A stretch of DNA of 41,648 bases from Candidatus Woesearchaeota archaeon (lineage in GTDB: Archaea; Nanobdellota; Nanobdellia; Woesearchaeales; GW2011-AR15). Where the stretch lies: positions 1 to 41,648 of the forward strand of contig WJJD01000016.1 in assembly GCA_014729915.1 (NCBI GenBank), written 5' to 3'. Below are positions 3,851 through 39,251 of the stretch, piece by piece; position 1 is the first letter of the stretch, and each line of letters begins with the position of its first letter. The position numbers and the translations under genes are program-made. The notes below the pieces were generated by a model. The model ran no database searches. It had not been told where the DNA came from and saw nothing but the letters and a program-made list of their open reading frames with translations.

Positions 3851-4025
3851 AACAAATTTTGATTGGACTATCCGGCCGTAATGAAAAGAGTTTTCGGGGA
3901 GGGGGTGTGGGGTGTATCTATAGGAAAAAGTAAAAGAGAAGAAAGGAGTGATATTGTATTACTTCAGATAGGTATATATATAAGAAATCATTCATTAACT
4001 TAAATGTAGTGATAGGGAGTAAAAA

Positions 4026-12010: not shown

Positions 12011-12074
12011 GCCTGGGATAAAAAAAATTCTAAAAAACAAATTTTTGAACCTCCAGTTCATTTTTTGACAAAAA

Positions 12075-12165
12075 TGAGCCTGGAGGGATTTGAACCCCCG
12101 CCAGCCGGTCCGAAGCCGACCGCCCTTTCTGGTATGCAAATATATCCAGACTAGGCTACAGGCCC
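12075..12165 (-). tRNA. tRNA-Arg (anticodon TCG) with a ~16-nt insertion in the D-loop
   Basis: Hand-folded from the reverse complement. The acceptor GGGCCTG/CAGGCTC has discriminator A; the anticodon arm is GTCGG-CTTCGGA-CCGGC; the T arm is GGGGG-TTCAAAT-CCCTC. The D stem GCCT/GGGC encloses 27 nt instead of about 10. An oligo-T follows the 3' end and CCA is not encoded. Confidence 0.8.
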
Positions 12166-12187
12166 ATAAGTAGGAAAAAACTTGTTG

Positions 12188-17936: not shown

Positions 17937-18368
17937 ATGAAAAAAATCAAACTAAAAAAAAAAGAAAAAAAATTTCTAAAAGAATATATTAGTAAAGGAA
18001 AAAAGAAAGCAAGATCAATTGCAAGAGCAAATGTACTGCTCTTACTTGATCAAAGATGGGACAACAAAAGTATTACTGCAAGTACAGGACTACATAGGCA
18101 AAGCATATGGAGAATTAAAAAAAGATATCTTAAAGAAGGAATAAAATCAGCAATAACTGAGAAACCAAGACCTGGTCAACCAAAGAAATATTCAAAAAAA
18201 GATAAAGCCACACTAATAGCAACAGCATGCAGTGATCCTCCCAAAGGTAGAAAAAGATGGACAGTTAGGTTGTTAGCAAAGGAAATGCGAGAAAAAGAAG
18301 GGATGAAAACTATGAATCGTGAAACAGTACGTTTAATTCTAAAAAAAACAAAACAAAACCTTGGTTGA
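17937..18368 (+). CDS. IS630-family transposase, N-terminal HTH part
   Basis: The HTH/winged-helix region ends in an A-rich slippery run (AAAAAAAACAAAACAAAACC). Confidence 0.7.
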   Translation: MKKIKLKKKEKKFLKEYISKGKKKARSIARANVLLLLDQRWDNKSITASTGLHRQSIWRIKKRYLKEGIKSAITEKPRPGQPKKYSKKDKATLIATACSDPPKGRKRWTVRLLAKEMREKEGMKTMNRETVRLILKKTKQNLG

Positions 18369-18862
18369 AAAAAAGATGGTGTATACCAAAATTAACACCC
18401 GAATTTAAGAGAAGAATGTATGATATTCTCGATCTTTATGAAACACCATACGATCCAAAAAACCCCGTAATTGTAATTGATGAAAAACCTATTCAATTAA
18501 TAGATCATATAAGAAAACCAATTCCTACAAAACAGGGAAAGATTGCTAAACAAGATTATGAATATAAAAGAAATGGTACAGCAAATATTTTTATTGGTGT
18601 TGAATTCAAAGCAGGAAAAAGAATTACAAAAGATACAAAGATAAGAACAAAAAAACATTATGCGCGATTTGCCAAAAGAGATTACACCTTAGAAGTGCAT
18701 GTTGACCACTTAATGCAAATTACTAGTGGAAGTATAGTATTTTATGATCCTGAAACACAACACAAGAGAGGAAGAAGAGATAAAATGAACAGAAGTGAGT
18801 TAATAGATCAGGCAGGGAAACTTGGGATGGATGAACACAACTTATTACCTTTCAAAGAATGA
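18365..18862 (+). pseudogene. IS630-family transposase, DDE part, truncated
   Basis: The (L)KKRWCIP...VIVIDEKP...YEYKRNGTANIF core is present. The C-terminal third of the catalytic domain is replaced by unrelated sequence. Confidence 0.65.
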
Positions 18863-34201: not shown

Positions 34202-34705
34202 ATGAAAATAAAAAAAGAAATATTAATGAAAACTGCTGAAGAATATGTTGGTCGTGATTCTCTGACTATTGTTAATTATTTAATAGGTAAAGAAAAAATT
34301 TCGGAATTTGTAATCGCAGAAGAGACTAATATTGAGATCCATCAGGTAAGAAACATCCTGTACAGGCTGAATAATCATAATTTAGCTATTTATATCAGGA
34401 AAAAAGACAGAAAAAAAGGATGGTATATCAGCTACTGGACATTAAATTACAAGAGATTTCAGGAATTGTATGAAAAATATCAGAAAAAAAGGGTTGAAAA
34501 GCTTAAGGATAAACTTAAAAAAGAGCAGGAAAGCAGAGAGGGACTGTTTATCTGCCCGAAACTTTGCTCAAGAATGAGTTTTGATAAGGCTATGGAGCAC
34601 CAATTCAAGTGTCCTGAATGCGGAACAATTCTTCAGAAACAGGACAATTCCAGAACAATTGAACATCTTAAAGAGATGATCCAGAAGTTTGAAGCTGTTG
34701 CTTAA
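34202..34705 (+). CDS. tfe: transcription factor E (TFIIE-alpha homologue)
   Basis: A winged helix (EFVIAEETNIEIHQVRNILYRLNNHNL) is followed by a zinc ribbon (CPKLC...CPECG). Confidence 0.82.
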   Translation: MKIKKEILMKTAEEYVGRDSLTIVNYLIGKEKISEFVIAEETNIEIHQVRNILYRLNNHNLAIYIRKKDRKKGWYISYWTLNYKRFQELYEKYQKKRVEKLKDKLKKEQESREGLFICPKLCSRMSFDKAMEHQFKCPECGTILQKQDNSRTIEHLKEMIQKFEAVA

Positions 34706-36223: not shown

Positions 36224-36308
36224 AGCTTTTTTATAATTTGTTAAGAATATTAAAATCTTTCGTTAGTAAGTAAATAGAAAGTCAGATACGGAAAATGGAG
36301 TTTTTTTT

Positions 36309-36470
36309 GTTAACATATTAAGTTGAAAAATTTTCGTTGAATGTCCAAGATGAAATTTTTTTTGACATTTTACATTCATCTTTTGCTGATTAATAGACAA
36401 TAAGAATAAGAAACATTCCGAAAATGGCAAAAAAAACCAGCATTCAACGGAAAGTCTATTCAATGTTAAC
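36309..36470. repeat. long-range inverted repeat (GTTAACAT...CGTTGAATG / CATTCAACG...ATGTTAAC)
   Basis: The arms at 36309..36343 and 36441..36470 share perfect 8-nt outer and 9-nt inner complementary blocks. Confidence 0.8.
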
Positions 36471-36496
36471 TAAAAAAATTTTCCATTGTACACATA

Positions 36497-36785
36497 AAAA
36501 ATCACAAGGTGATTTTTGGGCTTGAGAAATTTTGGATTTCCCAAATGTCGGAAATCCAAAGATTTCTGAGCACAGTCAAAAATCGCTTGGGCGATTTTCG
36601 ATGTGTTGGAAATGTTTTACATTTCTAATCATCGTCAGGAACCTTAATAAATCTGTCTGTCGGTTCCTGAGATGTCGGCAATCGGAGATTGCTGAGCATC
36701 ATCAGAAAAACGAAGTTTTTCCGAGATGTCGGAAACCCAAAGGTTTCTGAGCACAGTCAAAAATCGCTTGGGCGATTTTCGATGT
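36497..36785. repeat. tandem array of ~10 alternating stem-loops with conserved stem bases and linkers (candidate structured RNA)
   Basis: Hairpins: B0 36497..36517, A0 36526..36540, A1 36548..36569, B1 36576..36601, A2 36606..36628, B2 36635..36670, A3 36675..36695, B3 36702..36724, A4 36729..36750, B4 36757..36782. Compensatory pair changes occur between units. Confidence 0.85.
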
Positions 36786-36810
36786 TTTCCTCTGATTTTC
36801 TATTTATGTT

Positions 36811-36895: not shown

Positions 36896-37360
36896 TCATA
36901 TTTTTATAATAATTGTTTTGTCTTCAAGTTCAGCTTCATCAAGAATCTGCTTTTTTTTTAATTTATTTACATATCTGTAAAATGTTGCTTTTGAACATAA
37001 TCTGTCTTCTTCAATAATAATGTCTCTAATTTCAGGAAGAGTTAGATTTCTTTTGTTAGCTAACTCTATGATTCTATTTTTTATTATGTATTTTTTATTT
37101 CTTTTTATTTTTCTATAAACCTTTTTTTTGTAAGGATCTTCTTGTTTTATATTTTTTATTGTTTCTGAAACAATTTCTTTTATTGTATTCTGGTCCAACG
37201 AACTGTTTTTTAGTTCTTTTCGAAGATTAATGTTTTCTTCTAATACACGCTTGTGTTCTTTTTTTAATTCAAGAAGTTCCTGATTCAGTTCTCTGATATC
37301 TTTTTTAATTTTTTCAAATGAATTTTTAAGAAGCTTCTTGTCAATATTTCCCCCACTCAT
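36896..37360 (-). CDS. coiled-coil protein with C-terminal HTH-like domain, unknown family
   Basis: The N-terminal heptad-rich region is IRELNQELLELKKEHKRVLEENINLRKEL. The C-terminal region is LTLPEIRDIIIEEDRLCSKATFYRYVNKLKKKQIL. Confidence 0.55.
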   Translation of the reverse strand: MSGGNIDKKLLKNSFEKIKKDIRELNQELLELKKEHKRVLEENINLRKELKNSSLDQNTIKEIVSETIKNIKQEDPYKKKVYRKIKRNKKYIIKNRIIELANKRNLTLPEIRDIIIEEDRLCSKATFYRYVNKLKKKQILDEAELEDKTIIIKI

Positions 37361-37444
37361 TATTTTTTATAATTTTTTTTGATATTTAAATTTTTTCAAG
37401 AAATTGTCTTCGTAAAAATATCAGAAAAATAATCAATTGAATTT

Positions 37445-37603
37445 TTGAGAAATTGTATTATTGAGACAGCTTTGAGACAGTCTCAGTATGTTTTGAGATT
37501 AATTTGAGACGGAATAATATCTTAATCTCCAGTCGAAATAAAGGGGTGTCTCAACAATGTCTCATGAGACTGTTTTGAGAAGAATAGAGACAGATTGAGA
37601 CAG
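37445..37603. repeat. cluster of ~11 TTGAGAC(AG) iterons in both orientations
   Basis: Direct copies start at 37445, 37461, 37472, 37493, 37504, 37575, 37586 and 37595. Inverted copies are at 37480..37485, 37548..37554 and 37559..37564. Palindromes are TGAGACAGTCTCA (37473..37485) and GTCTCATGAGAC (37559..37570). Confidence 0.9.
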
Positions 37604-37727
37604 AAAATAACTGAGCAATATTTAATATATTACTTAATAGTAAAAAAATAATGCTAATTTAAAGATTTTCACAACAGTTATTAATTAAATCATTTTTCTT
37701 TTTTTAATAAAAGGAGGTAAGAGAAAA

Positions 37728-38171
37728 ATGATAAAAGATTGTATTTTCTGTAAAATTATTAAAGGAGATATTCCTAGCGAGAAAATATATGAGGATGAGC
37801 ATGTCTATGCATTTTTAGATATTAATCCTGCTGCAAAAGGGCACACATTGGTTATCCCAAAGAATCACTCTGAAAATATCACTGACATTAAAAAAGAGGA
37901 TCTTAAACATACTATCTTTGTTGTAAAAAAACTTGCCCCTAAAGTAATGGAAGCTGTTTCTGCAGATGGTTTTAATATAGGGATGAATAATTTTCCTGCT
38001 TCAGGGCAGGCAGTCATGCACTCACACTTTCATATCATCCCGAGAAAAAAAGGAGATGCTATCAAGCTTCCTGTACAGGGAAAATATGAAAAAGGGGAAA
38101 TTGAAAAAGTAAAAAAGTTAATAATCCAAAAATTAAAAAACATAAAGCTAACATCATCCCAGCTTTTATAA
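37728..38171 (+). CDS. HIT-family (Hint-like) nucleotide hydrolase
   Basis: CIFCKII...AFLDINPAAKGHTLVIPK...HSHFHIIPR is a histidine triad. Confidence 0.85.
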   Translation: MIKDCIFCKIIKGDIPSEKIYEDEHVYAFLDINPAAKGHTLVIPKNHSENITDIKKEDLKHTIFVVKKLAPKVMEAVSADGFNIGMNNFPASGQAVMHSHFHIIPRKKGDAIKLPVQGKYEKGEIEKVKKLIIQKLKNIKLTSSQLL

Positions 38172-38621: not shown

Positions 38622-39251
38622 ATGGAAAATGACACTATTGGATTAACTTATGAACTTCTTTTTAAGATTGTAAGAAATGAAAGAAAAAATCCTGATCTCC
38701 AAAATATTGATAAAGACATCTATGAGAAAATTATAGATTATGTAAAAAACAAAGATGATATTTATCATAGTTCTAAGGATTCTGTCACTCAAAAAGAGCA
38801 AGAAAAGATCCAGACACAAATAAAAAATATAAAAAAGTTAATCAAACAATTATTCAATCTGCGAGAAAAAAAAATAATTATTCTTGCAATAAACACTGCA
38901 AGAACTAGCTCTGAAATCAAAATAAAAGATATTCTTCCAGAAGAAAAAAAATTGTATGATATTCTGGTTGAGGTTTTGTCAGAATTCAGAAAGAGTGTAT
39001 TAGATCATTTATTAAAAGGAACATATCCTGAGTATGTTGAAAAAAAGAAAACAAGAAGAAAAAAAGGAAAACAAAAATCTGAACAGGAAAATAAATCAAA
39101 TAAAATTAAAGTCAGATTTCTTGACAACATTCCAAAATTTGTCGGACCTGAATTAGAGATTTATGGACCGTTTGAACCAAATCAGATCTTCTTTCTGCCT
39201 ACTCAGATCGCAAAAATCCTTGTTGATAAAAAAAGGGCTGAAAAAATATGA
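38622..39251 (+). CDS. GINS complex subunit (Gins51/Gins15 family)
   Basis: LTYELLFKIVRNERKNPDLQNIDKDIYEKIIDYV is at the N-terminus. The C-terminal B-domain-like VRFLDNIPKFVGPELEIYGPFEPNQIFFLPTQIAKILV follows. Confidence 0.6.
   Translation: MENDTIGLTYELLFKIVRNERKNPDLQNIDKDIYEKIIDYVKNKDDIYHSSKDSVTQKEQEKIQTQIKNIKKLIKQLFNLREKKIIILAINTARTSSEIKIKDILPEEKKLYDILVEVLSEFRKSVLDHLLKGTYPEYVEKKKTRRKKGKQKSEQENKSNKIKVRFLDNIPKFVGPELEIYGPFEPNQIFFLPTQIAKILVDKKRAEKI

Follow-up and report, generated by a model that had tools for sequence, protein, structure and literature searches.

To our knowledge, the control of replication in archaea is known almost solely from a few cultivated lineages, in which origin recognition boxes (ORBs) are taken to mark origins that adjoin the initiator gene, orc1. 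In structures of Orc1 bound to an ORB, it is the AAA+ domain of the initiator that contacts the end of the box bearing the G/C-string. In Sulfolobus, initiator genes adjoin their origins (PMC3607249) and, at oriC1, both of the inverted ORBs are needed (PMC12141716); adjacency to initiator genes is also how origins are defined by Ori-Finder-Arch (2026 preprint). Here we consider a locus in a Candidatus Woesearchaeota archaeon (GenBank assembly GCA_014729915.1, contig WJJD01000016.1, of which we analysed positions 1 to 41,648, hereafter the window), at which an ORB lies in the middle of a dense cluster of short TGAGAC boxes, in the region between the gene for a 154-amino-acid protein (36896..37360, minus strand) and a divergently transcribed HIT-family gene (37728..38171, plus strand). 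An earlier reading of this sequence (the original prediction) had placed the repeat cluster correctly in this divergent intergenic region, but had overlooked the ORB at its centre.

The nearest functional analogues appear to be two systems of Sulfolobus, from both of which our locus differs in context, motif and copy number as well as in the fold of the protein. The first is UBP with its motif ucm, a case in which a protein other than the initiator reads a short, specific motif beside ORBs (PMC12141716), much as we suppose to happen here. UBP, which has the fold of a β-hairpin saddle, has over 300 sites in the genome (Dhanaraju et al. 2025, PMC12141716), and ucm, 11 bp long, occurs singly within the unwinding element of genuine origins (PMC12141716), whereas in the present case a hexamer is repeated about 12 times, apparently at one locus only, away from the canonical origin, and it is a winged-helix protein that we take as the candidate binder. 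The second is oriC3 with WhiP, which resembles our locus in that the gene for a lineage-restricted winged-helix protein adjoins a site with repeats of its own. WhiP, however, is a Cdt1-like protein with tandem winged helices, and the 154-amino-acid protein combines one Fur-like winged helix with a coiled coil; moreover, origin activity has been demonstrated at oriC3 and is doubtful here. We found no description in the searchable literature of the composite (an ORB combined with phased TGAGAC boxes and a gene of this family, at a distance from orc1 and lacking an unwinding element), nor anything relevant on Woesearchaeota and the origin of replication. The ORB itself belongs to a known class of element; it is the composite that appears to be new. 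Our preferred reading, to which we give a probability of roughly 0.45, is that the ORB is an Orc1 site other than an origin, set among the operators of the neighbouring protein, and that by way of this array the binder controls its own promoter.

The central element (37526..37547, minus strand; 22 bp) reads ACCCCTTTATTTCGACTGGAGA, and comprises a C/G-string, a spacer of 3–4 nt and a dyad core. In the window the string is seen as GGGG at 37543-37546, 3 nt from the core, and the relatives have CCCC(C) followed by 3–4 nt; the window core is TTTCGACTGGAG, and the consensus (A)TTTCC-N3-GGA(G/A). In layout and core the element matches the ORB1 and ORB2 oligonucleotides of Pyrococcus furiosus, in which the core is ATTTCCACTGGA(A/G) and the spacer to the C-string is longer (PMC1904270), and a dyad core with a G/C-string 3–4 nt away is what it shares with the ORBs in the oriC regions of Pyrococcus, Sulfolobus and Aeropyrum generally. 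When an ORB-only pattern (CACCCC-N3-5-ATTTCC-NN-TGGA) was scanned against public metagenomes, it was found at at least 120 loci, in archaea of widely differing GC content. Among the 120 metagenomic loci listed, at least 27 had an Orc1/Cdc6 open reading frame (ORF) beside the match (membership of the Cdc6 families was confirmed for the ORF of one of them, L073), and several had two inverted ORBs about 1.5–1.7 kb apart with an orc1 gene between them. By its sequence, then, the central element is a canonical archaeal ORB, of the kind bound by a monomer of Orc1/Cdc6, and binding of Orc1 is predicted here also; insofar as such a box sits in mid-cluster, the connection with replication that had been suspected from the repeats has been borne out.

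The boxes around the ORB form a real array. Of the 20 exact copies of TGAGAC in the window, 8 are inside 37462-37601, at about 150 times the background density. For the shorter TGAGA, the earlier count of about 11 copies in 160 bp agrees with our own (11 copies in 37440-37625, or 59 per kb, compared with 2.3 per kb in the rest of the window). The greatest number of TGAGAC/GTCTCA in any 160 bp was 8, as against 3 over 300 shuffles of the window, and a Poisson estimate for 8 sites per 160 bp, once every position at which the 160 bp might fall has been corrected for, is about 7e-12. The cluster stands far above both background and shuffles, and its repeats look to be of the protein-binding type, as had been supposed. 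With degenerate copies included, there are about 13 boxes between 37446 and 37601, several of them 10–11 bp apart. What did not survive was the choice of core motif: in place of the TTGAGAC(AG)-type sequence TTGAGACAG that had been put forward, the hexamer TGAGAC emerges as the conserved core, a T preceding GAGAC in 92% of the copies among relatives and the flanking bases being weakly conserved.

On the gene-proximal side of the ORB, the array begins with a degenerate box, TGAGAA (37446..37451, plus strand), read in the sequence, followed by TGAGAC (37462..37467, plus), which aligns with a conserved GTCTCA box of the relatives and has its next neighbour 11 bp further on. This neighbour is the first half of the convergent palindrome TGAGAC-A-GTCTCA (TGAGACAGTCTCA, 37473..37485), where relatives keep TGAGACTGT(A/C)TCA. 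There follow another degenerate box, TGAGAT (37494..37499, plus), which again aligns with a conserved GTCTCA box of the relatives, and TGAGAC (37505..37510, plus), a member of the conserved box pair on this side of the ORB. Beyond the ORB, a TGAGAC box (37548..37553, minus) abuts its C/G-string, and box and ORB together read TGAGACACCCC on the minus strand. Then come the divergent palindrome GTCTCA-TGAGAC (GTCTCATGAGAC, 37559..37570), and three boxes recognised in the motif count: the degenerate TGAGAA (37576..37581, plus), AGAGAC (37586..37591, plus) and, 10 bp on, the outermost TGAGAC towards the HIT gene (37596..37601, plus). Both palindromes, and the spacings of about one helical turn (37462 to 37473, 11 bp; 37586 to 37596, 10 bp), had been recognised at the outset, and can be read directly in the sequence.

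Relatives of the locus were collected by a search with the protein family, taking one genome per species (GTDB), which yielded 59 loci (individual loci are referred to here by numbers prefixed with L). They come from metagenome-assembled genomes of Woesearchaeota, Nanoarchaeota or Nanobdellota type, one being a complete chromosome (CP010425.1, Archaeon GW2011_AR15), which carries the module at about 870.4 kb of its 1,157,790 bp; some third-party annotation records among the 59 are titled 'uncultured Methanosarcinales', a label that is unconfirmed. All 59 species records have a single match to the gene of the 154-amino-acid protein (the coiled-coil gene). A strict ORB, with the exact dyad core, adjoins it in 48/59, at least four copies of TGAGAC in 250 bp in 50/59, and both in 44/59. 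Over the 480 bp preceding the gene, GAGAC is present at 14.7 per kb, compared with 1.02 per kb in the other ~8 kb of each locus, a value close to the expectation from base composition. Across the loci, 304 boxes are oriented one way and 110 the opposite way, and the spacing between boxes of the same orientation has a sharp peak at 11 bp (83 cases), followed by 22 (17) and 32–33 bp (13), so that the boxes all look towards the same side of the helix.

In the closer relatives the order of the elements is positionally kept: two direct boxes 11 bp apart are followed by one further box, an inverted box fused to the C-string of the ORB (GAGACACCCC), the ORB, two direct boxes, a palindrome and a last box, 5–15 bp downstream of which lies a TATA-like element (TTTAAATA/TTTATATA, about 25–30 nt before the ATG). 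The junction GAGACACCCC was found again in most relatives. In more distant members the ORB is reversed in orientation, or two to three ORBs stand in tandem; at the coiled-coil-gene loci the ORBs were single or direct, one to three in number, and no inverted pair was seen. The divergent neighbour is the HIT gene in the closer relatives only and differs in other clades, the array remaining with the coiled-coil gene. In close relatives the locus is also conserved in its wider setting, as a check of synteny made clear: the order HIT gene–coiled-coil gene–PGM–TFE is common to L004 and L008. A DUF192-like gene (an assignment made by eye) is next downstream on the same strand, in a putative operon, in 24/59 loci, from the more distant clades; it is absent from that position in the window.

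A TGAGAC array was confined to this one site in all of the DNA examined. Among the 120 listed metagenomic ORB loci, only four (L102, L117, L131 and L179) are rich in TGAGAC, and in the two of these with enough flanking DNA the coiled-coil gene is adjacent in both; the other 116 have 0–1 TGAGAC within 220 bp, from which it follows that the hexamer is specific to this gene family and is no general companion of ORBs. The original prediction had grouped cluster, adjacent gene and a hairpin array on the far side of that gene into a single module of cis-element and binder. For cluster and gene this grouping is supported by the 50/59 loci with at least four TGAGAC; for the hairpin array, to which we return below, it is not.

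Structure prediction agrees with the earlier description of the 154-amino-acid protein as a coiled coil with a helix–turn–helix-like C-terminus. The AlphaFold2 model (predicted local distance difference test score, pLDDT, 83) has a long N-terminal helix (residues 8–52), two more helices and a C-terminal winged helix, of which the recognition helix is CSKATFYRY in the window and C-S-[KR]-A-[TS]-F-Y-R-[YH] in essentially all members seen (165 examined). The family is a large one (607 representative clusters, at 50% identity, with E ≤0.001). With the whole 154-amino-acid protein no Pfam family exceeded its threshold, the score against the FUR model being 22.4 bits (cut-off 23.1); when winged-helix domains were isolated, positions 16–67 of FUR matched 23/25 of them (best E 3e-5, 24.6 bits). 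Foldseek gave generic winged helices only, with E above 0.01, PerR/Fur leading (E ~0.02) and ArsR, F-93, TubR and RTP following. NCBIfam holds no model for the family (coiled-coil noise such as YabA was all that appeared), sequence searches of the PDB with the family gave coiled-coil noise or nothing significant, and PHROGs gave nothing useful. Two further relationships were considered and rejected: kinship with initiator winged helices (hhalign of the family against an Orc1/Cdc6 profile gave a probability of 0.3%, and there was no Cdt1 or Cdc6_C hit in Pfam) and membership of a Rep family (no Rep match among the family searches).

In fold and, at the level of the threshold, in sequence, the winged helix most resembles the DNA-binding domain of Fur repressors, whose boxes have been interpreted as rows of contiguous hexamers with the protein extending along them. 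Unlike Fur, the 154-amino-acid protein lacks a C-terminal metal-binding dimerisation domain (none was found, the protein ending with the wing at residue 154) and has an N-terminal coiled coil instead. It is a plausible DNA binder, and most likely the binder of the TGAGAC boxes (36896..37360 being the gene beside which they stand); an invariant helix facing an invariant hexamer fits a protein that reads the hexamer.

Is the locus an origin? For comparison we have four Orc1/Cdc6 genes (L187-L190) named as Woesearchaeota by their sources and collected with a DPANN Orc1 query (L182), an earlier query, with the ORF of L073, having returned Nitrososphaerales proteins only. All four are in orc1-dp1-dp2 clusters, with the genes for the PolD subunits, which is a classic euryarchaeal origin context, and the regions upstream of orc1 (at 4001 in each) contain ORBs of the same consensus as in our module (e.g. 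CCCCTTCATTTCCTATGGAA in L188). L190 has a clear inverted ORB pair (3628 plus, 3953 minus), L188 an inverted pair of which one arm is weak, and L187 and L189 opposite arms that by eye are degenerate ORBs or mini-ORBs. These ORBs flank tracts 54–463 bp long in which AT makes up at least 95%, and TGAGAC is absent from all four upstream regions.

The coiled-coil-gene loci present a different picture. The AT content of 52 intergenic regions upstream of the gene is 0.684 (0.697 in other intergenic regions), the longest tract with at least 95% AT has a median length of 16 bp (14 bp in other intergenic regions), and no AT-rich unwinding element was found in these 52 regions. No Orc1/Cdc6 ORF was found within 4 kb at any of the 59 loci, nor in the 41.6-kb window, nearly all of whose ORFs were also scanned with Pfam. 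A test of local skew, in which GC skew per gene was set against orientation and side of the locus (434 genes, 59 loci), gave a side effect of 0.002 (t=0.3), but the same test had no power at Orc1-adjacent ORB loci (5–11 usable). Thus, the locus differs from the oriC regions of Pyrococcus, Sulfolobus and Aeropyrum in its distance from orc1/cdc6, its single or direct ORBs and its lack of an AT-rich unwinding element, and from canonical origins at large, those of Woesearchaeota included, in that its ORB is embedded in TGAGAC arrays, which they do not have. Since an ORB is present but an AT element, an inverted pair and orc1 were not found, the locus is probably not the main chromosomal origin, and the earlier suggestion of an iteron-type origin is not upheld, nor does the locus look like a canonical archaeal one. 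A plasmid origin of the iteron kind (17–22-bp iterons with a Rep protein) was specifically rejected on the grounds of the 6-bp core, the 11-bp period, the want of a Rep match and the absence of the protein from PLSDB and IMG/VR. We infer that the main origin of Woesearchaeota lies upstream of orc1-dp1-dp2, its coexistence with the module in one genome being suggested by shared taxonomy and a shared ORB consensus.

One of these four loci, L188, has an additional feature: at 301–420 there is a pair of ORBs in direct orientation, separated by 87 bp and situated 150–270 bp upstream of the gene for TBP, about 3.6 kb from the orc1-adjacent origin. They may be another extra-origin Orc1 site or a part of an extended origin region, and they lend support to the occurrence, in this clade, of extra-origin ORBs upstream of genes.

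A bona fide ORB in an array that is unique in the DNA examined and adjoins the gene for its predicted binder might still suggest a secondary, non-canonical origin, analogous to oriC3 with WhiP, in which the adjacent protein would be the specific factor, the TGAGAC boxes would be iterons, and the ORB would bring in Orc1/Cdc6 for helicase loading. A gene beside its site is, after all, the layout seen in Sulfolobus (PMC3607249), phased repeats could wrap and distort DNA, and in the window the gene for GINS51 (38622-39251) is only ~1 kb from the cluster. We nevertheless consider such an origin unlikely. Its AT runs are like those of other intergenic regions, in contrast to the 54–463 bp of the four canonical origins, its ORBs never form the inverted pair of which both members are needed at oriC1, and the skew test, for what a test of undemonstrated power is worth, revealed no switch. 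The GINS neighbour is not conserved; it was not found at any related locus, and its proximity therefore looks coincidental.

Returning to our preferred reading of an Orc1 site within an auto-controlling operator array, the sequence of events might be as follows. Orc1/Cdc6 would bind the ORB. The coiled-coil protein, oligomerising by way of its N-terminal coiled coil, would coat the DNA to either side of it, filling the TGAGAC boxes in cooperative fashion on a single face of the helix, the box that touches the G/C-string end included. The resulting complex would regulate the gene that encodes the binder at its promoter, where in relatives the last box of the array is 5–15 bp from the TATA-like element, and occupancy of the ORB by Orc1 would feed into promoter control or into the assembly of the complex as a whole. 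Transcriptional roles of archaeal Orc1/Cdc6 proteins have already been noted in published work. In the window, a TATA-like element (TTTAAATA, 37383..37390, minus strand) is present 23–30 nt upstream of the ATG of the 154-amino-acid protein gene; this element, like those of the relatives, was read by eye, and the promoters are putative. The window position that aligns with the TATA of the relatives is degenerate.

What the sequences show is how the locus is built, that it is conserved, that it keeps company with the gene and that it contrasts with canonical origins; which protein binds which element, and to what physiological end, is inferred. Several observations weigh against this reading. 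In the window there are ~60 extra bases (37391-37445) between the last box and the TATA-like element, so that occlusion of the promoter is less obvious than in the relatives, and the core of the window ORB has one substitution, C-to-G (TTCG for TTCC), although the closest relative, L008, has the consensus core. L035, L037 and L039 keep the gene with neither array nor ORB in the DNA examined, and the link between gene and array is therefore not absolute. TGAGAC is assigned to the 154-amino-acid protein by co-occurrence only, and helix and motif are both nearly invariant, which leaves no room for covariation between them. The canonical origins of L187-L190, with which the locus is contrasted, come from assemblies other than those carrying the module. 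Finally, about 12 sites over 160 bp, flanking an ORB, exceed the needs of a simple autoregulator, and an array so large and symmetrical might have a less usual role, as a secondary replicator, in control of the initiator or in the organisation of the chromosome.

With this in mind, it is conceivable, if on balance rather doubtful, that this is a dedicated extra-origin locus for binding the initiator, in which a filament of a coiled-coil/Fur-like winged-helix protein peculiar to the clade would enclose the ORB at a fixed register, and which would either control the activity of the initiator and the timing of replication or act as a secondary replicator, without an unwinding element and specified by a new initiator-like factor. 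A more specific proposal, by analogy with datA and DARS of E. coli, would have the locus control the initiator as an extra-origin Orc1/Cdc6 site in a nucleoprotein scaffold, either titrating the initiator or altering its nucleotide state, and so setting the timing of replication. In favour of this can be cited the conservation across the clade of a high-quality ORB outside the canonical origin, the 1–3 tandem ORBs at some loci, and the fixed distance between the sites of a second protein and that end of the ORB which the AAA+ domain contacts. However, it is an analogy only, 1–3 ORBs would titrate little protein, and we know of no locus of the datA/DARS type in archaea; we judge this proposal very unlikely.

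The organisation of the array invites another comparison. Type II and III plasmid centromeres (parC/ParR, tubC/TubR) consist of phased direct repeats upstream of the gene for a small oligomeric binder, and repeats phased at about one turn (here the 11-bp direct repeats) upstream of a putative binder gene are found here as well. On these grounds, the locus could be a centromere-like or chromosome-organising site, with the 154-amino-acid protein as centromere-binding protein and a motor or condensin partner encoded elsewhere, and the uniqueness of the site in the DNA examined, and the presence of TubR among the weak Foldseek matches, would be in keeping with this. In L035 (1742-3043) and L037, which represent one Nanoarchaeota lineage, a ParA-like gene with a deviant Walker A motif lies upstream of the family member. 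The family member begins 67 bp downstream of this ATPase gene, which again recalls a partition system, but it is precisely these two loci that lack the array, and no repeats were found upstream of parA in either; the remaining array-less locus, L039, has no ParA. In the other 57/59 loci there is no adjacent NTPase gene (no ParA, ParM or TubZ motor), the Foldseek matches are to generic winged helices with E above 0.01, and the locus is chromosomal with an ORB in mid-array, which a centromere would leave unexplained. A centromere-like role therefore seems to us quite unlikely.

On the other side of the coiled-coil gene, the window contains the hairpin array (36480-36790) that had been counted as part of the module. 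It lies inside a 536-bp block (36271-36806) bounded by a 16-bp inverted repeat (TAAATAGAAAGTCAGA at 36271-36286 and TCTGATTTTCTATTTA at 36791-36806), and within it a stretch of 71 nt occurs twice in direct orientation (36537-36607 and 36718-36788), with 93% identity between the copies. Folded as RNA, 36500-36800 scores well beyond shuffled sequences (z = -8.1); in Rfam, the hairpin and cluster region had no match at the gathering score, and relaxing to E ≤1 gave matches at chance level only. The block is missing from L004 and L008, in which the PGM gene follows within ~45–55 bp of the coiled-coil gene, and it looks like a lineage-specific insertion resembling a miniature inverted-repeat transposable element (MITE), or a cassette for a structured RNA, rather than a component of the module.

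The same region had suggested that hairpin array, gene and iterons were together the remnant of an integrated plasmid or virus replicon, a single mobile block. Iteron-like repeats do lie beside a small DNA-binding gene, and a MITE-like insertion does adjoin that gene in the window, but we give almost no credence to a mobile origin, and the suggestion was not borne out: there is one copy of the gene per species record, the synteny from the HIT gene to TFE is common to relatives, where the space corresponding to the hairpin block has the ~45–55 bp just mentioned, the GC content is ordinary (that of the window is 32%), and searches of IMG/VR, PLSDB and PHROGs turned up no relative.

The remainder of the window is of less concern here. 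It includes the gene for TFE-alpha (34202-34705) and also encodes exosome subunits and Rpo4/RpoF (Rpb4-like). Together with GINS51 these are archaeal markers, and the nearest relatives of the gene for the 154-amino-acid protein bear the names Woesearchaeota or Nanoarchaeota in their sources, which places the organism among DPANN archaea of the Woesearchaeota type. At 12074-12166 (minus strand), ARAGORN indicated a 93-nt tRNA with an undetermined anticodon, where Rfam was blank at the gathering score; this may be an intron-containing archaeal tRNA. Two consecutive ORFs at 17937-18862, the first with transposase-type domains (HTH_32, HTH_29 and HTH_23), are possibly a split IS630-like transposase.

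In this clade, then, an organised ORB departs from the rule that ORBs mark origins, being located away from orc1, having no unwinding element, and being tied to a second motif and to a protein family. If the predicted binding is confirmed, the locus would be the first candidate in the DPANN archaea for regulation coupled to the initiator, or for a non-canonical replicator; it would give a named function to a conserved family of 'hypothetical' proteins; and it would call for caution in the use of origin predictors that score isolated ORBs.

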